From: Chloropicon primus
Lineage: Eukaryota
Direction: 5' to 3'
NCBI GenBank assembly: GCA_023205875.1
Contig: CP060758.1
Location: forward strand, 806,001-870,000
DNA: 64,000 nt
In this document: piece by piece, positions 3,324-51,359 of the stretch
How the letters are laid out: each line of letters opens with the position of its first letter
Position numbering within the stretch: the stretch's first letter is position 1
Notes under the pieces: generated by a model
The model's database searches: none
Seen by the model: only the letters and a program-made list of their open reading frames with translations
Told to the model about the DNA's origin: nothing
Made by a program: the position numbers and the translations under genes

Positions 3324-4952
3324 TTATCTGATCGGCTCCACATTTCTTGCCATGTTCATGAGCTTCTCCAGCACCTTGGGGCCGTTCTCCCTGATTCCGC
3401 TGTGCAGGTACTCGTTGGTGACGTATACCCTCAGCCCTTTAATCTTCTGGGCGGTTTCCAACGACAGGTTCAGATCCACATACATGTCCTCAAAATAGAC
3501 GGCAGCGGCTGCCCTGACCTCGTTCCGCAGGAGCTGCCCCTCGTCGTACAGGGGGGGCCAATCAGACTTCATGGCAAGGATCTCGCTGGCCTCTTGGAGC
3601 GGCCTCAGTTGCTTGACCTCGTCGAACATGAAAGGGAAGACCATCTCCCCCGTAAAAAACACGGGCTCATCATTCGCGATGGCCCAGCTCGCATCAAAAT
3701 TTCGGCACTCGTTCACCTCGTACTCTTTCCTCACGCTCTCGGCCGCCCAGCCACTCGGTCCCCCTTCGCTGCAATAGATGGACTCGTGCAGGATGGCGTA
3801 AATGACGTTCGTGTCTATCGAGATCAAGCTGTCGTAATCCCTAAGGAACTTGTAAGACAGCTCGCCCGTCACCTCGAAGGGGTCCTCGAACATGAAGTGG
3901 ATGCTCTCGAGGCACTGCGCCGATCCGAACCTTATCCCGATGGACTGCAGGGACTTCGCGGAAAGAATGTTGCCGGCGGGCGTCTCCACGGACCTCTTCT
4001 TGAGCAGGTAGGAGAAGACCTGCCTGATCTTCTCCACGTCCTGAGGGAACCTCGAGTAATACTTTTTGTTCTGGGTCTCGACGCGCTTGAACAGGTGGGT
4101 GTAGACCTTGTGAGCGGTGCACCCCTTGTCCGTCGGCGGCAGTCCTCCCATGATGAAAGACTCCCTGAGGGACGAGGGAAACATGGAGAGGTACGTGACG
4201 GTGCAGAACCCGCCGAAGGACTGTCCTATGGTGCTCCACTGCTTCTGCCCCAGGCACTGCCTGATGGCCTCGGCGTCCCTCACGATGTTGTCCGCACGAT
4301 GCAGCGCGAGGAGGGCCGCCTGGTCGTGGGCAGAGTCCAGGAGCGCGAGGGAGGCCGTCGTCAGGGCCGTGCTCCTCCCCGTCCCGCGCTGGTCCAGGAG
4401 CAACACCCTGAAGGACTCGCAGGCTTTGTCCATCCAGCCTCCGGAGTCCAGCGGCCTCGGCGATTCGAACCCCGGCCCCCCCTGCAAGTAGATCAGGTAC
4501 GGCAGGGAGTCGCTCGGCCTTCGGGACGAGGACACCTCCCGGGCAAACACAACGATCTTCTTCTTCCCCTCCTCCTCCCCCCCAGCAGCGGCGTTCTTCT
4601 CGTCGTCGTAATCCAGGGGAACTTCGAAGAACAGCTCCCTCATGTGCAGGCCGTTCACCACGTCGGTGCACCCCAACCAGTGCCTGATCCGGCCGAACGA
4701 GGTCTCCGCCACGGTCGCCGTGGACGCGCCGGTCGCCGTGGACGCGCTCGCCCCGGCCGCTCGCATGGCAAGGCTGATGGCGTAGGTTGGCCTCGAGGGT
4801 GGATCGACGCGACAGCGGCGCGAGAAAGCGGCTGAGCCTTTGCAGGTGTGGTGCCTTGCGCGATACCTGGTGGATCGATCCACTGCAGCTGCTTGGCGTC
4901 GTCCACTGAACGCTCCTGCCCGCGCGACCGTCCGAGACCACACCGCCACCAT
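3324..4952 (-). CDS. PIP: Proline iminopeptidase (alpha/beta hydrolase S33)
   Basis: YLQGGPGFESP, LLDQRGTGRS, GQSFGG nucleophile elbow, DMYVD, EYLHSGIR. Confidence 0.9.
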   Translation of the reverse strand: MVAVWSRTVARAGAFSGRRQAAAVDRSTRYRARHHTCKGSAAFSRRCRVDPPSRPTYAISLAMRAAGASASTATGASTATVAETSFGRIRHWLGCTDVVNGLHMRELFFEVPLDYDDEKNAAAGGEEEGKKKIVVFAREVSSSRRPSDSLPYLIYLQGGPGFESPRPLDSGGWMDKACESFRVLLLDQRGTGRSTALTTASLALLDSAHDQAALLALHRADNIVRDAEAIRQCLGQKQWSTIGQSFGGFCTVTYLSMFPSSLRESFIMGGLPPTDKGCTAHKVYTHLFKRVETQNKKYYSRFPQDVEKIRQVFSYLLKKRSVETPAGNILSAKSLQSIGIRFGSAQCLESIHFMFEDPFEVTGELSYKFLRDYDSLISIDTNVIYAILHESIYCSEGGPSGWAAESVRKEYEVNECRNFDASWAIANDEPVFFTGEMVFPFMFDEVKQLRPLQEASEILAMKSDWPPLYDEGQLLRNEVRAAAAVYFEDMYVDLNLSLETAQKIKGLRVYVTNEYLHSGIRENGPKVLEKLMNMARNVEPIR

Positions 4953-6042
4953 TCCAGCAAAGGAAAGGCGAGGAGTGATCACCCAGCAGCGAAGGCTCTC
5001 TCCCCTTCGAGAGAGAGATGGAGGAGGGGAGAGAACGGAGGAGACAATAAAGATAATGGGCAAGAGGAGGTGTGTGTGGAGAGAGAGAGTCCGTATTGGG
5101 CGGGTTGGAGGAATTCGGCTCCATTGGGCACCTCCTCCTCCTCCTCCTCCTCCTGCTGCTGCTGCTTCAAGAGGACACTGTGGACCTTGGAGCCAAGACA
5201 CACGCGCAGCCAGGGTGCGTTACGCGCCCGGGCATTGGATGGGGGTTCGAGCGGGGGAGGGATGGTGCGTGCGTGGTCAGGGCCCCTCGAAAGTCTGCTG
5301 GCCGAGCCGATCCTAGAGAGAGAGAGAGAGAGAGAGAACGAGCATCCTTGCGTGTTGCGTCTGCGTCTTCTCGACGAGGAGGGAGGGAGGAGGACACGAT
5401 CCACAGAGAGGCAGGCACTAATTGTTTTTTTCCTTCTTCGAGGGAGGCCACCAAAACAAATCGAAGGCCAAGATCGCAACCTTGCGAGCGCGCAAGGAAC
5501 GAGACGACAGACAGAACCGCAGCGCCCCCCTCCCTCCCTCAACCCAAAGATAAGACAAGATAAGAATAAGATAAAGTTTCTCTCACGGTTGCACGGTTGT
5601 CCTCACTCACCGGGGGGTTGTAGCGCGGCACAAGAGAAGAAGCAAAGGTCAAGGTCCTCCGCTCTCCTCCTCTCCCCTCTCTTGTGGGGCTCGAAAATCT
5701 GGGCCGCGCCGGTCGAGTAGAACGGCCCACATTAAACCTGCCCAGAAAAGGGCACCCATGGGGAGACTGGAATCGCGAGAATCGCTCCGTTTTTGTGGGA
5801 GGAGGGGCGGGCGACTTGTAACGGCCGCGTGCGTCAGGTCAGTGATGGCAAGGACGAGGGCGGCCACGAGGTGCGAGAGAAGGAGTCGTGAGCTTGTGAC
5901 CGAGGAGGGAGACCGCGTTGTCAAGGGGAGCAGGGGGATCGCGCGAGGGCGGCGAGTCAAAGGAGTGGCCCGCCCCAAACCCCGGGGTGGTGGTGTGGTG
6001 GTTTGCAAGAAGAAGCGGAGTGACACGACGACGACGAGGGGG

Positions 6043-6285
6043 ATGGTACGGGGAAGCGTCGCGCAAAGGTACGGCCTGTTACTGGGGTGCGTGGTGGTGG
6101 TCCTGGCCCTCGCGCTCGGAGTCGCGCTGGCGACGACCGAGGAGGAGTTCGTCCTGTTGCAAAGGAGGCTGGTGCAGGAGCCCTCCGCCCCACGGACGGG
6201 CTTGTTCAGGGTCCAGGAGGCTTTCCAGGGCAACAGCATCCTGGCGAACTACCTGTTCCAGCGGGCCAGGGAGAGCGAGGGCTAA
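6043..6285 (+). CDS. Small hypothetical protein with signal/TM segment (start uncertain, could be 5758)
   Basis: Hydrophobic stretch LLLGCVVVVLALALGVALA and host-like codon usage; no family recognised. Confidence 0.4.
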   Translation: MVRGSVAQRYGLLLGCVVVVLALALGVALATTEEEFVLLQRRLVQEPSAPRTGLFRVQEAFQGNSILANYLFQRARESEG

Positions 6286-6443
6286 GGGGGGAGACTGCAC
6301 CCCCAAACAACTATCTGTGTCATGCATGCGACGTGTTTTTTGTTTTTGTTTCTTCTTCTTCTTCGTGTGAACCAGCACAAAAGAGCAAGTAATATTGTTA
6401 ATAGTTTGATTTCGATTGATTGGACGATTCACGGCCGTTCTCC

Positions 6444-7820
<1,377 letters not shown>

Positions 7821-11282: not shown

Positions 11283-12647
11283 TTACTTTCTGCTCTTCCT
11301 GCTTTTGACGTACCTCAGACCCATCTCCGCCCGGTTCTCGTTCTCGTGGGTGTCGTCGTCATCCAGGTTCTTCGCAGACCGCTTCCTTCCCTTCCTCGAG
11401 TCCGTCTCTCTCATCTGCATTGACGCCAGCCTCGAGGCCTCGCTCACCCTCTCCTGAAGAACCAAGACCGCTTCCTCTTGCGACTCGAAGTTCTCCATCT
11501 TCTTTCCTATCAGGTGCTCGATCTTTTGGAACATCTCCACGTCGTACTGGGTGACGAGGGTGAGAGACCTCCCAGACCTCCCGGCCCTTGCCGTTCTGCC
11601 GACGCGGTGCACGTAATCCTTGGGATTCAAGGGGACATCAAAGTTGATGACCATGTCGACCGAGGGAATGTCCAAGCCTCGGCTTGCCACATCCGTCGCC
11701 ACCAGAATGTTTCTGTCACCCGACTTGAACTTGTTCAACGAACCAATTCTCTTCGACTGACTCATGTTACCGTGGATCGGTATGGAGGCAAAGCCCAAGT
11801 TCCTCAGCAAGAGCGCGTTCCTGCGAGCGCCGTCGCAAGTTCTGGTGAAGATGACAGCCGTGGATCCCGAGAGCTCCGTCAGGGCGTAGACCAGGTAGCA
11901 CTCCTTGAACTTGGCGGGTATGAAGAGGTACTGCTGCCTTAGCGTGTCCACGGTGCTGTACTTGCTGCAGATCTCCACCCTCACCGGGTTTTTCAGGCAA
12001 GCTCTCTGCAGCTTCTGCACTTTGCTCGTCATCGTCGCCGAGAACAGCTGCGTCCTGCGGTCCCTCGGTATCACCTTGAGGATCTGGTCGATCTCCTGCT
12101 CGAAGTCCATGTTCAAAAGCCGGTCGGCCTCGTCCAACACCAAGTGCTTCAACTTGTTCAGGTTAAAGCCCTTTGTGTTCGAAAGGTGGTCCACGACCCT
12201 TCCCGGCGTGCCCACAATGACGTGCGGCCTCCGGCCCAATGCGATGGACTGGGCCATCATGTCCACCCCTCCGACGAGAACCACGGACTTCAAGCCTATC
12301 GTAACCCCCAGGGCCTCGAACTGCTCCGCGATTTGGATGGCGAGCTCTCTCGTGGGGGACAGAACGAGGGCGAAGAAGGGCTGGGGCTTGTCGAGGAGCT
12401 CTTGGAGTATGGGTAGCGCGAAAGCGCCCGTCTTCCCGCTTCCAGTCTGAGCCAGACCAATCACGTCCTTGCCGTCTATCAACTGAGGAACTGCTTGGCG
12501 TTGGATGTCCGTAGGAGCCTTCCAGCCCAGGGCGAGGCACCCCTCGGCCAAGGCGTCCACGAGGCCGAGGTCCGTGAACGCCTTCTTAGCGTCCCCTTCC
12601 CCCGTCCCGGCCTGCCCGTTCGTCTCCTTCCGTTGCTCGGCACTCAT
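11283..12647 (-). CDS. RRP3: DEAD-box RNA helicase RRP3/DDX47 (RH10)
   Basis: [40 protein letters not shown]. Confidence 0.93.
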
Positions 12648-12760
12648 CTTCCCCCTCCCCCTCTCGTCGCTCTCCCGTCGCGCCGTCTTTCTTTTGCAGA
12701 CTTGACTTGGAGGGGAGGACCTGCCGAATCGCGAATTGCTGAAGGGAAATTGAAATTTGA

Positions 12761-12774
12761 AATTACGATTACAT
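12761..12774 (+). repeat. Left copy of 14-bp target-site duplication AATTACGATTACAT
   Basis: Identical to 16282-16295. Confidence 0.9.
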
Positions 12775-12784
12775 AGTACATCAG

Positions 12785-13315
12785 ATTAGCAAATGAATCC
12801 TCGTGTGATCGCTGGTGAGAGCGATCACACTCATGACGCTACCCGCAGGGCTTCACCAGGGCTTCGCCCTAGCTTCGGCCTGCGCTGCGTCTACGTTGCT
12901 TCTCATCATTTGATTACACGATACCATCACGCAAAAGTTACCCCGGAGGGTTACTCCCATCAGGTACCTTCGATTGTATTCTATGCGGCCCTCCACCAGC
13001 GAATCGAAACGCCTTTTTGAATGGAAGGTGACACTTCCATCCAATGTAGAGAGCCATCCGGACTACTCTCACTCCGAAGGGGAAGGAGCTGCCCCGAGTG
13101 TAAAACACTTTCATGCAGGCGTGTCGGAGCTCACCCCGGCGGTGGCGAGGCTTGGTTGGTTGGCTGTTTCAGAATCAAGAGTCTTGAAACATGTAGGCAC
13201 GCAAGGCTACTCCTTTCATCGTCCACAACCAATCACCCCGCCGATACCAGGGACTGTCGAGCTCGCACGCTCTTTGAGTCTTCGAGCTGTGGCCTCGACT
13301 ATGGGGGCGCGTTCA
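12785..13315. ncRNA. Putative large structured RNA at the 5' end of the Fanzor element (family unknown, strand uncertain)
   Basis: Consecutive stems: CAAATGA/TCATTTG, GTGTGATCGC/GCGATCACAC, GACGC..CGCAGG/CCTGCG..GCGTC, TTCGATT/AATCGAA, ATGGAAG/CTTCCAT, GAGAG/CTCTC, CACTC/GAGTG, GTTTCA/TGAAAC, GTCGAG/CTCGAC; no credible ORF. Confidence 0.5.
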
Positions 13316-13449
13316 CTTAAAAAAGAAACACAAGGAAACAAAAAACGAGAACGCAAGCCCCTCTCAGTCTCGACTAATCAAGCGCAGCTTCTTCATCATG
13401 GCTGGGCACACCATGGTGATGGGCACACGGCGTCGCCAAGGGAAGTGCT

Positions 13450-13509
13450 GGTCGCTCGGGCAGGCCGGTCGCTCGGGCAGGCCGGTCGCTCGGGCAAGCG
13501 ACCGGCCTG
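13450..13509. repeat. 17-bp tandem repeat (GGTCGCTCGGGCAGGCC x~2.8) ending in a perfect 13-bp hairpin
   Basis: Units at 13450, 13467, 13484; CAGGCCGGTCGCT (13478-13490) pairs with AGCGACCGGCCTG (13497-13509). Confidence 0.9.
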
Positions 13510-13580
13510 GTGCGACGACGGACGTTCACAACTGAGGGTGAGGGTCGTGGTCTCCGATGACACTTTCAAAATTTCCACGA

Positions 13581-13638
13581 CCACAGCCACAACCACAGCC
13601 ACAGCCACAGCCACAGCCACAGCCACAGCCACAGCCAC
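13581..13638. repeat. (CCACAG)n microsatellite upstream of Fanzor
   Basis: Visible hexamer run with one variant unit. Confidence 0.9.
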
Positions 13639-13729
13639 AACATCAAAAAAAGAGAGGAGAGGAGAGGAGAGGAGAGAGGGGGGGAGGGAGGGGGGCTGGG
13701 CACTTCCACATTAACTCTACTTCGACACC

Positions 13730-15796
13730 ATGACCTCCGACGGCCCTTCGACCTCACGTCCTACTGCCAAGCGTCTACGTGGTTCGCGTTCTCCTCGCCG
13801 ATCCCATTCAAAGAGGAGGAAGGGGAAGAAGGAGAAGGAGAAGGAGAAGAAGGGGAAGAAGAAAAAAATTTTTAGGGCGTATAAGATCGGTCTCCATTCA
13901 GCTCTCCAGCCCAGGTTGCGGGACAGCCTTGGGGTCGAATTGGAGGATGCCTCAAGAAGAATGGGGGTGATAAACCATCTCGGGACGGTGTTGATGGCCC
14001 TCCACCATGCTCGTCGGCTTGGGGAACTGCCCGGGGCTTCTGCTGATCTCGAAACCTTTCACCGTCGGTGCGGAGAGATGGTGACTGAGCTCAATCAACT
14101 CAGGGCTGAGCGGGAGGGGGGGCCGGTGGCGGACATCCAACTCCTCAAGAGGGTTTGGAGGTGTGTTCCAGCGATGGATCGGGTTTCGATAGGTCACTAC
14201 CTCCGCACCGTCTCCCACACGCCCAATTCGAGGGAACCAACGTCACAGGAACCAACGTCACAGGAGTGGAGATTGCTCCAGGCATCCATGGCGGCGTTGG
14301 TTCAGGCCGCCACAGCTGCCGAGACCTCTCTGCGTCTGCGTCTGCCATCGCGGGCGCTCCTGTCGCATGTCATCACGGAAGCTGCACTAGTTCTCAGGAC
14401 GAATTGGTCAAACTTCCTCAAGTACGGGACCTTCAATCACATGAAGCAATACCTGAGAGCAAAGTACCAACTGAACAAATCCGAGGCTGCCGCTCTCCGA
14501 GCAGCCCTTTTGAGCGAGTCGCAGCCCCGGAGACCCGACCTCGTCCAACACTACCACAACGAGCTGGCCCTCGTTCAGGGCTTTGGCGTTGCAGACTTTA
14601 TGCACGGCACCGACAACGTTCTCGACCCCGCGGAGCAAGAGAGAAACATGGTCGTGTTCAGGTATATGATGCTCAAAACGGTAGAGGCCTCGGACCTTCC
14701 GATCAAGCGTTTCACTCTGGTGCCTGTCTGCCGGGTGCAGTATCCAATGATCAATGTCTCGCGATCTTGCCTGAAACTCTGGGGCTATGATGGTGGCCGT
14801 GGGTGGGAGAAGATTTTCACCAAGAAGGTGAACAACATCGCCAAGAAGGGCCACACGAATGGACGTACCAAGGCATTCGCTAGGCACTTTCGAACCGATG
14901 GCCTCAGCGTCGTGGTCGTTGTCGAAGAGGTGATCCTCGCTCGTCCCGACAACAACTATATAGGCCAAGGGGAGCGGTGTGCCACCAAGCCTTCTCAGTT
15001 CGATCCCCGGAACACCGTGGGCGTTGATCCCGGCCGAATTTTTGTCGTCTACGCGAACATTCTGGAGAGGGGGAGGAAGAGGACCTTTTCTCTTCACCTC
15101 TCCGCTTACCGCGACCGCTGTGGTTTCACGAAGAGGAATATTTTGGCACACCAGTGGCTGAGCAGAGCCCCCAACAATCTCCAACAGAGATTGAACGACC
15201 GCGCCATTTCTCTGAAGCTCACAAGTGTAGATCGCCTCCAGGCGGCGATTGGGACCCGGCTCACCTTCCTCTCCAACGCCATCGATTTTTTGGGGCAACG
15301 GCGCTGGCGTCGAAAAGGGTTGGAGACTTTTGGGCGAAAGCAGCGAACTATGGAGTTCATAGCAAGCAAACTCTTCCCGACGGCGTCACACATCGTCTTC
15401 TACGGAGCCGCAAACTTCCCCTCTGGCATCAGGGGACGCCCTCCCGGGCCTTGCATCGGGCTCAAAAGGTTTTTGGTGACGAAGACCACACCAGGGAGAT
15501 TCTTCTTCGTCGATGAATACAACACCTCCAAGATGTGCGCAGCATGCTCTCAGAAGAACATCTCCACTGCGCTGCGGAGAGTGCACAAGAGTGATAGAAG
15601 CCGAGGAAACGGACCACCATCAAAGAAGGGACGTCCCCAGTACGGAGTTTTGTCCTGCCCCAAATGCAGTATGGAAGTGCCCCGCGACGATAACGGCTCG
15701 GACAACATCCTCGCCATCGCCAGTGCTTTCCTCCATGCACAAAATTGGTCTGTCCCACGCGAGATTTGGCCGCCAGCGCTGCGACGCCCTCTGTAG
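13730..15796 (+). CDS. Fanzor1 (eukaryotic TnpB-like RNA-guided DNA endonuclease), 688 aa, intronless
   Basis: RuvC-I VGVDPG (D433), RuvC-II VDEYNTSK (E596) adjacent to CAAC, CPKC zinc finger, RuvC-III RDDNGSDNI (D653); Fanzor1-type FTLVP, RTDGLSV and VFYGAANF segments; basic NLS-like N-terminus. Confidence 0.9.
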   Translation: MTSDGPSTSRPTAKRLRGSRSPRRSHSKRRKGKKEKEKEKKGKKKKIFRAYKIGLHSALQPRLRDSLGVELEDASRRMGVINHLGTVLMALHHARRLGELPGASADLETFHRRCGEMVTELNQLRAEREGGPVADIQLLKRVWRCVPAMDRVSIGHYLRTVSHTPNSREPTSQEPTSQEWRLLQASMAALVQAATAAETSLRLRLPSRALLSHVITEAALVLRTNWSNFLKYGTFNHMKQYLRAKYQLNKSEAAALRAALLSESQPRRPDLVQHYHNELALVQGFGVADFMHGTDNVLDPAEQERNMVVFRYMMLKTVEASDLPIKRFTLVPVCRVQYPMINVSRSCLKLWGYDGGRGWEKIFTKKVNNIAKKGHTNGRTKAFARHFRTDGLSVVVVVEEVILARPDNNYIGQGERCATKPSQFDPRNTVGVDPGRIFVVYANILERGRKRTFSLHLSAYRDRCGFTKRNILAHQWLSRAPNNLQQRLNDRAISLKLTSVDRLQAAIGTRLTFLSNAIDFLGQRRWRRKGLETFGRKQRTMEFIASKLFPTASHIVFYGAANFPSGIRGRPPGPCIGLKRFLVTKTTPGRFFFVDEYNTSKMCAACSQKNISTALRRVHKSDRSRGNGPPSKKGRPQYGVLSCPKCSMEVPRDDNGSDNILAIASAFLHAQNWSVPREIWPPALRRPL

Positions 15797-15880
15797 CGGC
15801 AAGGGCTATGGATCCAGGTTGAAACCAAGCAGGACACTGGATAAGATCTTTCTTGAGATCGAGGAGGACGTGGGAGGCCC
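15786..15880 (+). ncRNA. Putative Fanzor omegaRNA: scaffold ~15786-15860, guide from ~15861
   Basis: Stems GCCCT/AGGGC, ATCCAG/CTGGAT enclosing GGT-TGAA-ACC, and GATCT/AGATC directly 3' of the ORF, where Fanzor/TnpB omegaRNAs lie; host-gene homology starts right after the last stem. Confidence 0.6.
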
Positions 15881-16261
15881 AAGCACAGGACGTCGGGGCA
15901 TTCCAAACGAGTCCGGACAGCACCACGAGCTCATCCATCGGACCGGCAGGGCTATCCTCGTAGTTCGCGTAGTAGAAGCCTCCCAGTGTGTACCCGTTCA
16001 ACTCCACCAGAGGCATCTCCTGCACGACGACGGCAAGCGCGTCCCATCCCATCCCATCATCCAAGCGTCCGTACACAGAGTGAGAGAGTGCGTGCGTGTG
16101 CGTGCGTGTGTGTGTGTGGGGGGGGGAGTCAGTTCAGTTCAGTCCATGGTGAGTGCGACAGGAAGGTTTGCTTGTTGGGAACTTACCGGAGGGACGTATT
16201 GGCGAGCGACAGAGGACTTGACGAGGTGGAACTGATAGTGCGCGGACCCCCTGAACGTCCA
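15861..16261 (-). pseudogene. Fragment of NEOXANTHIN-DEFICIENT 1-like gene, truncated at both ends, intron 16020-16186 retained
   Basis: Spliced translation WTFRGSAHYQFHLVKSSVARQYVPPEMPLVELNGYTLGGFYYANYEDSPAGPMDELVVLSGLVWNAPTSCAWASHVL matches the NXD1 N-terminal half; in-frame stop and no ATG upstream; C-terminal half not found in the window. Confidence 0.8.
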
Positions 16262-16281
16262 ACAACCCTCCCGGGAACGTC

Positions 16282-16295
16282 AATTACGATTACAT
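16282..16295 (+). repeat. Right copy of 14-bp target-site duplication; contains the TGTAA poly(A) signal (minus strand) of the Rab3GAP gene
   Basis: AATTACGATTACAT identical to 12761-12774; abuts the TAA stop at 16295-16297. Confidence 0.9.
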
Positions 16296-18811
16296 TAGAC
16301 GGTTACAATGGAAGCGAAACGTGTCATGCTCTGGTCGAGGTCTTGGGAGAGGTAGGTGTACAACAAGGGCAAGTCCTCGGGGCCTTGGGCCTCGCCGGCG
16401 GAGGTGAACAGTTGGACCACCTGCTTGCGGAGGTGAAGGAGCATCACGCTGTCAGAGCTTTCTTCCTGCCTTCGGAAGCTTTCGCCGAAACTGAAGGAGG
16501 AGTGAAAGGGGTCCGAGAGGCTCAGCTCCAGGGTCGGGCCGTTGGAGAACTCCTTTGTGACCAGTTTGTTGACGAAGGCGTCGACAAGGAAGGCCTTGAC
16601 GTCCCCCGAAAGGAAGACCAGCTTCTGGACCACGCTCTCGGCGAAGGATATGGAGACTTCCAGCAGGTGGAGGTCGAGGCAGAGGATCGTGGCCTCCTCG
16701 TCCTTCGCGAGGTCTGAAGTCGCCAGCTTCTTCGGCAACTTCGCCACCCAGTCTTGGACGCTCTCTTTGACGCTCGAGACGAGATCTGCGATAGGCTTCA
16801 GCTCCAGGTTCCTGCTCGCTCTGAGGGTGTTCACACAATTGGACAAGCCCAGGCAGTAGAGCGACTTGAACAACTCGAGGGGGGCCACGTGCTCGAGCCA
16901 GTCCAGGGCCATCTCGGCTCTGCTGCAGAGAACGCTTTCTGCCAACCCCCCCTCGGAGTGGTCCTCTTCCTCTTGGGCGCTCGCCAAGTCATTCCACACG
17001 TCTTTCAGCCTGTCCTTGGTGAAATTGTTCCACGCAAGAGATTTGCAGAGCTTTGAGAACTCGTCGAAATACCTCGAGGACCGAAAGTGCTTCTTGAAGT
17101 CACCAAAGGACACCCCGTCCTTGGCCCTCCTGAAGGACCTTGCCATCTTCCTCGCCGCAACCCCGTGCATCTTGATCCAGACCTCTTTCTTGTTCTTCTT
17201 GTTCGAGGTCGTGGTGAACATGTAGTCATACTCACCGACGAGGTCCGAGGTGAGCATGCTCGGGTTCGAATCACCCGAGTCATTTCCCACCAAGTCGTTC
17301 GCGCTCAGGGTGCCGCCGCTCCTCAGCCCCAGAATGCAGAGCTGGATCAGCTGCACCTTCTGCTCGATGACTTGGCACGAATGGTCGATGCCCGCAAAGC
17401 CAACCATTCTCGGCAGGAGCTCCCGCTCCTCCCAGTACCCGAGCCTAATCCCCGAAATAAACCGCTTCCACAGCAAGGAGATCGCCCTTGGGTTGTCGCC
17501 ATAAGACAGGGCGTACATGGACAGGTACCCCACGAGGTTGTCCACGGGGAGGCTGTGGAGGTCGTTCTCGAGCCCCCCGAAGTTCTGCGTGACGTGAGCC
17601 CTCCGGTTGAAGATGGACTCGACCTGAGTCTCCAAAAGATTCTTCGAGGGTATCTGAGGGACCTGCGAGTATTGGTCCCAAAATGAATCCTGGGACAACT
17701 GGCTGACCCCCTTGGCCCTCTCGACCAGCTGAAAGGTGGAGTGAAAGGCGGACACCATTTGAGCAAAAAAGTAGCCACCGCTTGACTTCTTCATGGTATC
17801 CATCACATTCCTGTGCCACATGACGTCCGAGAGCACTTCGTCTTTGAGCTCGAGCTTCAAGCAGGCCTCGCCCACCGCGTCAAGGGCACTCAGAGACGAG
17901 AGCTCAAAACTCTTCACGGACTGGGAAGATCCGCTGGACCCACCCGCGCGTTGGAATGAATCGAGATCGGTCTGCACATCAGAGCAGCGGAGGTTGTCCC
18001 ACGATATTCCCAGCCTTATCCCGGCGATTGGATCTTCGTATTCTGCCCAAGGGTACCAGGGGCAAGCAGCGTTCCAGTCGTCAATCCAGATGCACATGTC
18101 GGACTCTGACTCCGGGAGGGTCCAAGTGAGTTCGAACTCTCTCGTCACACTCGCGCTCGTGCTCGCGGCCTGCCCTGCCCCCCCCGCGGCGGCGGCTCCC
18201 CGCCCCCTCTCCACGACCGATCCCGCCCTGGACTCGGAGTGGTAGCCTTCCACGACCGACAGCGGAGGCATCTCAGCTGCCTTGAGTCTTCCCGTGATAC
18301 AGTCCGTTTGCAACCGCGCCACGTGGCCCCCTGGCCTCAGGTGCACGCCTTCGAAGGACCTCCTCTGCCTGTCTCTCATCGGTATGAGCAGCGGGTGGGG
18401 GAACTTCAAGCTCGTCGCGGACGTGGACAGAGCCGACAAGAGCGCCACGCCCTCCTCCTTATCGAGAACGCAGCCCGAAAACGAGTTCGGGTAAAGCAGC
18501 ACGAAGGGCTCCCCCTCCCCCAAGGCAAGCCACTTGGACAGGTAGTGGTCCATGGGAGGGTAGTGCAAGGCCACGCTGTACTTCTCCGGCCGGAACTGCG
18601 GCAGCTTCGCTTCCAGGACCCACACATGAACCTGGTCCCCCTCGTTGTTTTCGATGACTTGGCTCGGCGATGCTGCAGCGGGAAAGTCTCTCAAACCTTC
18701 TCCGTCCTCCTGGGCCTTCTTCCATTCGCGAAGCTTGGCCTCCACCTCCGCACAGAACGCCTCCCACGCCGTCGCGGTCGTGTAGTCCAGGAACCCGTCC
18801 TCATCCTCCAT
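16295..18811 (-). CDS. RAB3GAP1: Rab3 GTPase-activating protein catalytic subunit-like
   Basis: N-terminal DYTTATAWEAFCAEVE, NPRAISLLWKRFI..WE and IDHSCQVIEQKVQLIQLCI segments. Confidence 0.7.
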   Translation of the reverse strand: MEDEDGFLDYTTATAWEAFCAEVEAKLREWKKAQEDGEGLRDFPAAASPSQVIENNEGDQVHVWVLEAKLPQFRPEKYSVALHYPPMDHYLSKWLALGEGEPFVLLYPNSFSGCVLDKEEGVALLSALSTSATSLKFPHPLLIPMRDRQRRSFEGVHLRPGGHVARLQTDCITGRLKAAEMPPLSVVEGYHSESRAGSVVERGRGAAAAGGAGQAASTSASVTREFELTWTLPESESDMCIWIDDWNAACPWYPWAEYEDPIAGIRLGISWDNLRCSDVQTDLDSFQRAGGSSGSSQSVKSFELSSLSALDAVGEACLKLELKDEVLSDVMWHRNVMDTMKKSSGGYFFAQMVSAFHSTFQLVERAKGVSQLSQDSFWDQYSQVPQIPSKNLLETQVESIFNRRAHVTQNFGGLENDLHSLPVDNLVGYLSMYALSYGDNPRAISLLWKRFISGIRLGYWEERELLPRMVGFAGIDHSCQVIEQKVQLIQLCILGLRSGGTLSANDLVGNDSGDSNPSMLTSDLVGEYDYMFTTTSNKKNKKEVWIKMHGVAARKMARSFRRAKDGVSFGDFKKHFRSSRYFDEFSKLCKSLAWNNFTKDRLKDVWNDLASAQEEEDHSEGGLAESVLCSRAEMALDWLEHVAPLELFKSLYCLGLSNCVNTLRASRNLELKPIADLVSSVKESVQDWVAKLPKKLATSDLAKDEEATILCLDLHLLEVSISFAESVVQKLVFLSGDVKAFLVDAFVNKLVTKEFSNGPTLELSLSDPFHSSFSFGESFRRQEESSDSVMLLHLRKQVVQLFTSAGEAQGPEDLPLLYTYLSQDLDQSMTRFASIVTV

Positions 18812-18999
18812 GATCTCCGAGCCCCCCCAGCTGTCACTTGTGGAGGATACCAGCCCAGCAAAGCACCAGAGAGAGAGAAGAGAGAGAGGGGGGGGTGAAT
18901 CGGTTGGTGGGAGTCCATAAGAAGTATGTCGTTTCATAAAAAATACTTGGAGATAAGGGTGTACTTTTTAGACCCTTACTTGCTGCAGAGCATCACCAG

Positions 19000-49583: not shown

Positions 49584-51359
49584 TTACGCCGCGTTGCTGT
49601 GGCTGGTGGTCCTGTCGACGAGAGCTTCCGCGACAAGGAAGTGGAAGAGAGACAAGGAGGCGATTGTGACGTCCCTTGGCTCCACGAACTCGAGGGGTGA
49701 GTGGCTTATGCCGTCCCTACACCGAACGAAGAGCATGCCTATCGGGGTGACCTCTGACATGGCCAGGGCGTCGTGCCCAGCCCCGCTCGCTATCACTGGG
49801 ACCGAGGCCTCGTCCATCTCCCAAAGTATGCTACTCTCTCCCTCCTTCCCCTTCCCGTCACCACCAACCGCTTCCGCTGGGTCGACTGACGACGAGACTT
49901 GCCGGGCCTCTTCGTACCGCTTGGCAAAGGAGTGCGCGCCGATGATACCCTTCCGGAGGGACTCTGTGAACACGGGGGACGACTGGCAGGACTCCGCGTT
50001 GTGCTTTGTCTCGATGTTGCAGTCCACGCTCCTCCTCGCGGCGATGTCCTTGAGGCTCACTCGGACCAAGTCCACGACCTCCTCCCTCATGGTGTCGTCC
50101 TTGCACCGAATGTCGATACTGAAGTTGGAGTACCCGGCAATGACGTTGGACGCCCCAGGGAAAACGTTGAACTCCCCCACCGTGCACACCAACATGTTCT
50201 CACGAGACAAGGGGAAAGCCTTGCAGTCCTTCTCTATCCTGTGAATCATCTCCGCGCTTGCCGCGATGGTGTCCCTCCTTTGGTCCATGGGAACCGTCCC
50301 GGCGTGCCCCGAGAACCCGTCGACCTGAACGTAGAGTCTCGTCTGGCCGCTGATCGCGCTGACGACCCCGACAGGCTGATTCAGGGACTGCAAGACGGGC
50401 CCCTGCTCTATGTGCACCTCGACGTAGCCGTAGAGCTCTTCCCTCTTCATGGCGATCTTCGCGATGTCCTCCTTGCTGTTGCTCAGCCCCACGGTCTCCA
50501 ACACGCTGGACAGCGTGTACCCCTTGCTGTCCCTGGCATCCAAGTACCCATGCTTGAGAAAAGTCCCCGAAACCGCCCTGCTGCCCAAAAAAGTGGATTT
50601 AAACCTCAAACCCTCCTCGTCGCTGAAAGCGATGACCTCCACCGGCCTCTTGAGAGCGAGGCCCTCGTCGCTGTCCAGCTTCAGCTTCAGGTTCTTCACC
50701 GCAGTTATCGCGGCAACTATTCCCAGCGTGCCGTCGTAAGCCCCCCCGTCGACGACAGTATCTATGTGCGAACCCAAAAGCAGTAGCTTTTCCCCCTCCC
50801 CTGTCTTGCCTCCCTCAGCCCCCGCGCCTGCACCGCCCGCCCTCTCGAGCCTTCCGTGCAAGTTCCCCACGCTGTCCAGCCAGACGCGCAACCCTGCCTC
50901 CTCCATCCACCTCCGGACGCTGGCGAGGGCTCGGAGCGAGCCCGGGCTGAGGAAAGTCCGCTCCAGGTGAAAATCACTGTCGCTGATCCCTGCCAACTCG
51001 TCCAGGTAGCTGTTCGTCATGTTCGCGTTCGCGAAAAACGTCCTCATCATCTTCAAGTTCTCATCCCGCTCACGTGACACCCCGGCGAGGAGGACCCCCG
51101 CGCCCGCGCCCGTGGCCCCGAGCACGCTCCCCCCCTCGTCGCAGACGCCGTCACCCCCGACCTCATCCCTCGCCCTCCCAACGCCACCTGCCCTCGCATC
51201 CTCGCCCAGCGTCGCCCCCTCGACCCCAACAGGACAAGCCAGTGCCACCCACACCCAAGCGACAAAAAAGGACACCACCACCGCCTTTTTTTTTCGTCGA
51301 CCCCGCCAAGCGCAAAGGACCCGAGAGCGCGTCCGAGTAGGAGTACGATCCCGCCTCAT
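49584..51359 (-). CDS. AAH: Allantoate deiminase/amidohydrolase (M20)
   Basis: GSHIDTV, YDGTLG, FSDEEG, EVHIEQGP, GHAGTVPM, SGAGHDA, GISHSP. Confidence 0.92.
   Translation of the reverse strand: MRRDRTPTRTRSRVLCAWRGRRKKKAVVVSFFVAWVWVALACPVGVEGATLGEDARAGGVGRARDEVGGDGVCDEGGSVLGATGAGAGVLLAGVSRERDENLKMMRTFFANANMTNSYLDELAGISDSDFHLERTFLSPGSLRALASVRRWMEEAGLRVWLDSVGNLHGRLERAGGAGAGAEGGKTGEGEKLLLLGSHIDTVVDGGAYDGTLGIVAAITAVKNLKLKLDSDEGLALKRPVEVIAFSDEEGLRFKSTFLGSRAVSGTFLKHGYLDARDSKGYTLSSVLETVGLSNSKEDIAKIAMKREELYGYVEVHIEQGPVLQSLNQPVGVVSAISGQTRLYVQVDGFSGHAGTVPMDQRRDTIAASAEMIHRIEKDCKAFPLSRENMLVCTVGEFNVFPGASNVIAGYSNFSIDIRCKDDTMREEVVDLVRVSLKDIAARRSVDCNIETKHNAESCQSSPVFTESLRKGIIGAHSFAKRYEEARQVSSSVDPAEAVGGDGKGKEGESSILWEMDEASVPVIASGAGHDALAMSEVTPIGMLFVRCRDGISHSPLEFVEPRDVTIASLSLFHFLVAEALVDRTTSHSNAA

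Follow-up and report, generated by a model that had tools for sequence, protein, structure and literature searches.

The window analysed here is a 64,000-nucleotide stretch of a Chloropicon primus-type genome, in which an insertion of 3,507 bp (12775-16281) lies in intergenic DNA. Its left neighbour is a DEAD-box helicase gene on the minus strand (11283-12647), and to its right is an 880-aa host open reading frame, also on the minus strand (16295-18937), that has no Pfam match. The insertion is flanked by a 14 bp direct repeat, the two copies of which (12761-12774 and 16282-16295) match exactly; the right copy lies directly against the host gene's stop codon, and contig depth there is back to the single-copy level. 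Of 210 pairs of TTACA sites this pair alone shares a 14-mer, and a word of 14 nt or longer was common to just one of about 20,000 random pairs of 30 nt windows. The repeat is likely a target duplication around the insertion, judging from the sequence of the one junction pair of the element that was examined. Its right copy contains TGTAA, the poly(A) signal of chlorophytes, on the minus strand. The unique left-flank contig in the DNA sequencing run X1 stops at 12791, and 12762-12791 is perhaps common to another copy or allele; should these 13 bases of the left repeat be part of the end proper to the family, the reading as a duplication would be weakened.

The cargo consists of an intact-looking Fanzor1 gene and a piece of a host gene. 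The Fanzor1 open reading frame (13730-15796, plus strand) encodes 688 aa, matches Pfam PF07282 with a Cas12f1-like TNB domain, and is 97% identical to annotated C. primus proteins. There are 237 relatives at E values up to 0.001, the best of those beyond C. primus being 23-38% identical. Blocks that align with 36 relatives include the DPG of RuvC-I, the Glu preceding the C4 zinc finger, and the RD, TDG and YGAA motifs; the corresponding residues are D433, E596, C603/606/643/646 and R652-D653, with D433, E596 and D653 forming the RuvC set. In databases, the gene models for this family of Fanzors (565-572 aa) begin 116 codons further down, and the extra open N-terminus (13730-14077) is basic and NLS-like. 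The Fanzor orthogroup contains six genes in one C. primus strain and five, two of them adjacent, in the other, and the available listing gives two chromosomes in one strain only (PMC12301720); this distribution suggests recent movement, with annotation differences as a possible contributor.

To the right of Fanzor1 is a 413 bp fragment of NEOXANTHIN-DEFICIENT 1 (NXD1; 15867-16279, minus strand), composed of part of exon 1, a 167 nt GT-AG intron (16186-16020) and part of exon 2. Matches to the NXD1 protein flank the intron on both sides, and both protein and contig comparisons place the Fanzor/NXD1 junction at 15866/15867. The native C. primus NXD1 is intact elsewhere and diverges directly after 15867. 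The fusion recurs at a second locus, which retains the start codon and full N-terminus of NXD1 and lies beside a broken Fanzor; in the present copy the NXD1 piece is cut eight codons in, inside the coding region. The intron would be in sense orientation in an RNA intermediate from the minus strand, yet it has been retained, which points to copying at the DNA level. An annotated 196-aa 'protein' (15465-16052, minus strand) is a chimera in which the NXD1 piece is read into the antisense of the Fanzor end, and its 224-aa twin carries the NXD1 name in databases.

The insertion is one copy of a repeat with one fixed and one variable end. Contig depth in X1, which does not equal true copy number, is 158 and 128 in the flanks, 1133 at 13094-13201, 1144 at 13276-13436 and 929 in another piece, and then 804 over Fanzor and 547 and 584 over the NXD1 piece, so that the left end is commoner than the right. 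Over 12700-13450 X1 yields 142 contigs, with 25 at 99% identity or above, 48 at 95-99%, 57 at 90-95% and 12 below 90%, and three probable RNA runs from two studies yield 19, 13 and 6; runs X7, X8 and X15 gave only scattered short pieces and were left out. The fixed end (12775-12802) when read on the minus strand finishes with CTGATGT (12784-12778) and three further bases, and the loose ends of other copies carry a similar end motif, with a one-base indel, up to the fixed end and are divergent thereafter. Some copies retain only the terminal 60 or 215 nt. The segment at 12785-13345 is the conserved, fixed end of this multicopy Fanzor1-bearing element; it is also present in copies without the Fanzor side. 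A 3,047 nt contig (X5) and a 533 nt contig (X1) share 13131/13138-13230 with 8 differences (92% identity) and then continue into unaligned sequence; since X1 contains no such joint on 12200-16800, we infer a different body of about 3 kb beyond 13230, which is perhaps the autonomous partner.

A preliminary description of this DNA, made from the letters alone, had placed an ornate RNA-like domain of about 530 nt at the 5' end of a Fanzor element. The location was right, in that the segment lies at the 5' end in the sense of Fanzor and inside the unit bounded by the 14 bp repeat, but the element as described overlooked the duplication and the captured host-gene piece, both of which define it. Every stem that had been named folds locally at about the proposed position, and the comparison with dinucleotide shuffles that had been suggested as a check comes out in favour of folding, with 12785-13320 beating 100 of 100 shuffles on both strands. 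This is so with RNA parameters (z of -3.24 for plus and -5.26 for minus) and with DNA parameters (-4.28 and -3.97), under which both strands fold alike whereas the RNA parameters favour minus. When the segment is split, folding is strong in 12785-12920 (z -4.6/-4.7, with no strand preference), but 12921-13320 is only mildly unusual (-1.75 plus, -2.65 minus), and 2 of 48 background strand-windows of 400 nt from the rest of the 64 kb reach -2.65. As an illustration of the background tail, a coding region for a peptidase of the M20 family (50500-50900) has a z of -3.5 on both strands. Among 120 nt windows across 12600-16400 the peak is at 12800-12919 (-5.1/-6.2). A strand-neutral count of stems with one mismatch allowed is little above expectation (15 stems, compared with 11.8 for each background piece and 7.8 for each shuffle), and the G-U pairs in these stems (three on plus, two on minus) show no bias.

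The folding signal is thus concentrated in 12803-12891, making two strong hairpins certain and an ornate 530 nt RNA not. The first is a subterminal perfect hairpin (12803-12830) 28 nt from the end, with 11 pairs where 10 had been counted, which folds on both strands and as both RNA and DNA. One diverged copy, to judge from its loose end, appears to have a shorter version, with a GNRA-type loop on minus that would favour RNA. The second is the long nested stem, present at 12835-12891 (17 pairs on plus and 20 on minus) and built around two 11 nt tandem units (12846-12867), of which copies gain or lose about one. On the minus strand it is capped by a C-GAA-G triloop (loop 12863-12865) and is the only C-GNA-G hairpin with at least four further pairs on that strand of the 64 kb. 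Triloops of the C-GNA-G type are very stable in single-stranded DNA. One variant alters solely the middle base of this triloop, an uncertain case that lies near indels. The closed multibranch domain of the preliminary description fares less well: its helix (12790-12796/12906-12912) forms in local folds but is absent from both whole-region ensembles, and other copies differ there. The UNCG-type loops are not borne out, as the minimum-energy folds close no UNCG or GNRA tetraloop hairpin on either strand. Beyond the hairpins is mildly folded subterminal sequence (12892-13320, minus strand) that is common to diverged copies, in which a hairpin at 13016-13045 is optional, two variants being without all or most of it (one with a joint at 12998-13074, the other a 27-gap variant). 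The A-rich tract (13319-13346, plus strand) is as had been noted, with A at 21 of 28 positions.

Variation among the copies provides a view of whether an RNA fold is constrained. Inside 12775-13330 there are 38 of the 40 substitutions shown, and none of the 38 forms part of a two-sided compensatory change. On the plus fold 16 are unpaired, 4 keep a pair and 18 break one, and on the minus fold the numbers are 11, 7 and 20. These substitutions are unphased, come from close relatives only and in many cases stand beside indels, so they are weak evidence against a constrained fold. Pairing of the terminal loop with 12852-12858 or 12994-13002 in a pseudoknot is rejected, since these positions are altered or missing in variants. 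A plus-strand frame at 12983-13237 is not treated as a gene: a comparison with longer proteins gave no relative, and the frame is broken up by indels in other copies.

The segment matches no known RNA family, in agreement with the preliminary description. An Rfam scan of the whole window at the gathering cut-off and one of 12700-16400 at E values up to 10 found nothing in the segment, the four low-complexity matches all being elsewhere, and a tRNA scan found none. Pol III B box, hammerhead core (CUGANGA) and HDV-like matches are absent from it, and the telomere-template motif is represented by one 6 nt word on minus only. A host housekeeping RNA is rejected since the segment is multicopy, diverged and inside a repeat-bounded unit. 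The suggestion that the element has been joined to a small ribozyme or a group I intron, as a eukaryotic IStron, has in its favour a location 5' of the nuclease open reading frame and a length near 500 nt, and it recalls the structured 5' region ahead of a TnpB-like frame in IStrons as reviewed in the available part of PMC13565253. Set against those elements, there is here no group I intron core, there are no IS605/IS607 ends, and the site is intergenic with a 14 bp repeat. The P7 consensus of group I introns is GACTA/TAGTC; GACTA occurs on plus only and TAGTC on minus only, so no canonical P7 pair can form on one strand. Together with the empty Rfam scan, even at E up to 10, these observations make a ribozyme or IStron most improbable.

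Homologues outside the C. primus copies were sought in several collections. A distant DNA search with the segment gave no match in phages and four in plasmids at an E value of 0.5, none a homologue, and a search of genome contigs gave none. Exact-pattern matches in two viral contigs (L001 and L002) were set aside as chance, there being no further likeness, and a third pattern had no match. With the Fanzor as query there was no match in viral contigs and there were seven loci in metagenomes (24-37% identity, AT-rich), none carrying the segment. One of these contigs (L004), AT-rich and probably from a giant virus, has a distant Fanzor-like frame (4846-6798) among XPG, RFC and ankyrin genes.

From the stop codon of Fanzor to the junction there are 70 nt, which fold into small stems in the usual position of an omegaRNA, so the predicted guide is antisense to NXD1. 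The predicted scaffold (15780-15866, plus strand) has three small stems and folds no better than shuffles (z 0.1). The predicted guide (15867-15890) of this intact-looking Fanzor1 would make self-targeting of the host NXD1 possible. A different place for a guide RNA is the folded segment itself, which on the minus strand could be a long scaffold (omegaRNA or fRNA) for which the left flank would be the guide, either belonging to a partner family that has its own nuclease or serving this Fanzor in trans. The minus strand does fold better, the guide at the right end of this Fanzor is tied to NXD1 and unable to mark the empty site, and in Chlamydomonas the fRNA is described as sitting at the conserved Helitron2 end, with extra copies (PMC10530073). 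We nonetheless regard a guide RNA here as improbable: the segment is unlike both this Fanzor's right end and the seven distant Fanzor loci, it is far longer than the published scaffolds (about 120-200 nt in the accounts available, PMC10530073 among them), the probable-RNA contigs of some copies run through the fixed end, and no second C. primus Fanzor1 family is named among the 10 of 237 relatives looked up.

Coverage in the probable RNA runs begins at about 12797-12825 while DNA coverage continues further, and 12700-12777 is uncovered in X4-X6; both are weak hints only. The former would suit a promoter and long 5' leader of a plus-strand Fanzor mRNA, in which the folding would be incidental to palindromes arising by template slippage, and the varying number of 11 nt tandem units between copies is in keeping with this. 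But the segment is common to copies without the Fanzor side and marks the fixed end of the element, and the strand cannot be derived from the contigs, and we think a leader distinctly improbable.

Both rolling-circle copying and retrotransposition would account for an element that is fixed at one end, is variable and carries captured flank at the other, and has a 14 bp duplication. In the latter, the structured 3' RNA of a minus-strand transcript would be bound by the reverse transcriptase of a Penelope-like or LINE partner, and target-primed reverse transcription would give the duplication, the truncation at 16279 and two extra bases. In favour of this are a duplication of variable length and a gradient of depth resembling 5' truncation; the RNA fold is stronger on minus, the long end is shared with another body of about 3 kb in a probable RNA run, and the NXD1 promoter would drive read-through in the minus direction. 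Penelope-like elements of the Chlamys clade occur in green algae, are 5' truncated, mostly lack hammerheads, and are able to mobilise genes of the host and to retain introns (Craig et al. 2021, PMC8557442). The element differs from them in having no pseudo-LTR (there is no long direct repeat) and no reverse transcriptase or GIY-YIG open reading frame that we could see, and the available text of PMC8557442 contains no mention of Fanzor. There is also no poly(A) or clean microsatellite tail at the element end and no hammerhead core, and the copy variants show no covariation. Among the retrotransposition models considered, reports of intron retention concern Penelope-like elements only (PMC8557442, as far as its text was available); a LINE would be expected to have removed introns from transduced sequence, and the 167 nt GT-AG intron is kept. 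Retrotransposition is an unlikely source of the element, though the main rival to rolling-circle copying. Its fullest form, in which an intact Fanzor1 cassette spread through an RNA intermediate, with an opposite-strand 3' RNA of about 550 nt recruiting a reverse transcriptase in trans and intron-containing read-through transcripts being copied, is quite unlikely; if true, it would be the first retro-mobilised Fanzor, with a fixed guide against the host carotenoid gene NXD1. Some role as RNA may still belong to the segment, but a single functional RNA of 530 nt is not shown, given that none of the 38 substitutions is compensatory, modules come and go between copies, and the intron is kept.

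Of the roles proposed in the preliminary description, a replication or transposition signal is the best for the segment. We put at about even the chance that the two strong terminal hairpins are single-stranded DNA signals for an HUH transposase of the rolling-circle, Helitron2-like type, supplied from elsewhere in the genome to a non-autonomous element of about 3.5 kb that carries Fanzor1. A plausible scenario is that copying would start at the fixed end (12778), proceed through Fanzor and normally stop at a hairpin of the Fanzor right end (15866), and that in the present lineage it overran by 413 bp, copying DNA that flanked a donor copy sited in NXD1. Repair of a staggered break would then give the 14 bp duplication, as described for the 5'-truncated copies of CRe-1/2/3. 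The remaining 400 nt or so would be subterminal sequence that came from the partner family; it would be transcribed and fold mildly, with no discrete RNA machine. Rolling-circle copying explains the retained intron directly and has the precedent of CRe-1/2/3, and for these reasons a Helitron2-like DNA end signal is preferred. The absence of a poly(A) tail at the end, the similar folding of the two strands under DNA parameters and the lack of compensatory changes also speak for it. Against a DNA signal stand the bias of the RNA fold towards minus and the coverage of the segment in the three probable RNA runs of two studies. A 5 bp hairpin 6 nt inside the Fanzor right end is a candidate for the 5'-terminal hairpin of Helitron2 elements, but it may instead be the omegaRNA stem.

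CRe-1/2/3 of Chlamydomonas reinhardtii are non-autonomous Helitron2 elements that bear Fanzor1, are intact at one end and truncated at the other, and have duplications of 7-19 bp; at the variable end some also carry additional sequence that was captured (Bao and Jurka 2013, PMC3627910). CrFNuc is treated in PMC10530073. Their sequences end in TGT, with GCGAAGC-capped hairpins on the same strand (PMC3627910 supplement). The present element resembles them in its green algal host, its Fanzor1 cargo, one fixed and one truncated end, a duplication within the 7-19 bp range, a terminal TGT, a subterminal hairpin and a GCGAAGC-capped hairpin on the TGT-ending strand (here minus), and the extra sequence captured at its variable end, here the 413 bp NXD1 piece. 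The hairpin near the conserved 3' end of Helitron2 has its counterpart in the 11 bp hairpin at 12803-12830, 28 nt from the end. There are also differences from CRe-1 as described. The Chloropicon Fanzor has no introns and runs antisense to the fixed end, an orientation opposite to that of CRe-1 and one in which the predicted guide comes from the variable end, and the GCGAAGC hairpins are at the variable end in CRe-1 but near the fixed end here. CRe ends share 50-200 nt (PMC3627910), whereas the shared, folded end in Chloropicon is at least 450 nt. No TTTT precedes the duplication, the minus strand having TCTA in place of the T-rich tetranucleotide expected of the CRe type. The best asymmetric inverted repeat linking the ends is 7 of 8 (12822 against the Fanzor right end), about the level of chance, with none at 16235-16281; the variable end of this copy may be other than the family's own, a caveat on this comparison. 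No RepHel partner was seen, the open reading frame and Pfam survey of this copy finding no RepHel or Rep gene, and the supplementary list of Chloropicon orthogroups, confined to those specific to a species or strain, has no match for 'helitron'. The element would behave as CRe-1 does, yet we do not class it within Helitron2.

Two other kinds of element invite comparison. Replitron-1 and Replitron-N1 likewise have one precise end, duplications of variable length and parental flank taken up at the other end (Craig 2023, PMC10288648; PMC9977147). Replitrons carry short direct repeats at their two termini and go with a Y1 Rep partner. In the Chloropicon element the sole end-to-end repeat seen is the 14-mer whose right copy abuts the host stop codon, no such partner was seen, and the captured flank is 413 bp where that of Replitron is a few bases; Fanzor cargo is undescribed for Replitron in the available text (PMC10288648). 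The Fanzor2* elements reported from C. primus share the species, the non-autonomous state and Fanzor as the sole encoded protein (Yoon et al. 2023, PMC10711439), but they belong to a different protein family, all nine Chloropicon rows available in the supplement being of the Fanzor2 type (about 480-540 aa), and they have terminal inverted repeats (TIRs) with a 5 nt duplication. Around the present element pairs of TIRs and short duplications were found at the level of chance only, and none was convincing.

The family is undescribed in the literature covered, incompletely, on Fanzor, Helitrons or the transposable elements of Chloropicon. Regarded as a large new RNA, the finding carries little weight. 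The family provides an example, small, recent and with few copies, of how one-ended elements that bear Fanzor make target duplications in green algae; these duplications are unexplained, and for them cutting by Fanzor as a source is raised as speculation only in the available text of PMC10288648. Because Fanzor faces away from the fixed end, capture of flank can freeze the guide, here predicted on the host NXD1, and this makes self-targeting or repression testable.

Among the various other features of the element, we note three 17 nt tandem repeats followed by an inverted copy at 13447-13509, which form a strong hairpin (z down to -5). A CCACAG microsatellite comes next, together with a GA-rich tract (13575-13700).
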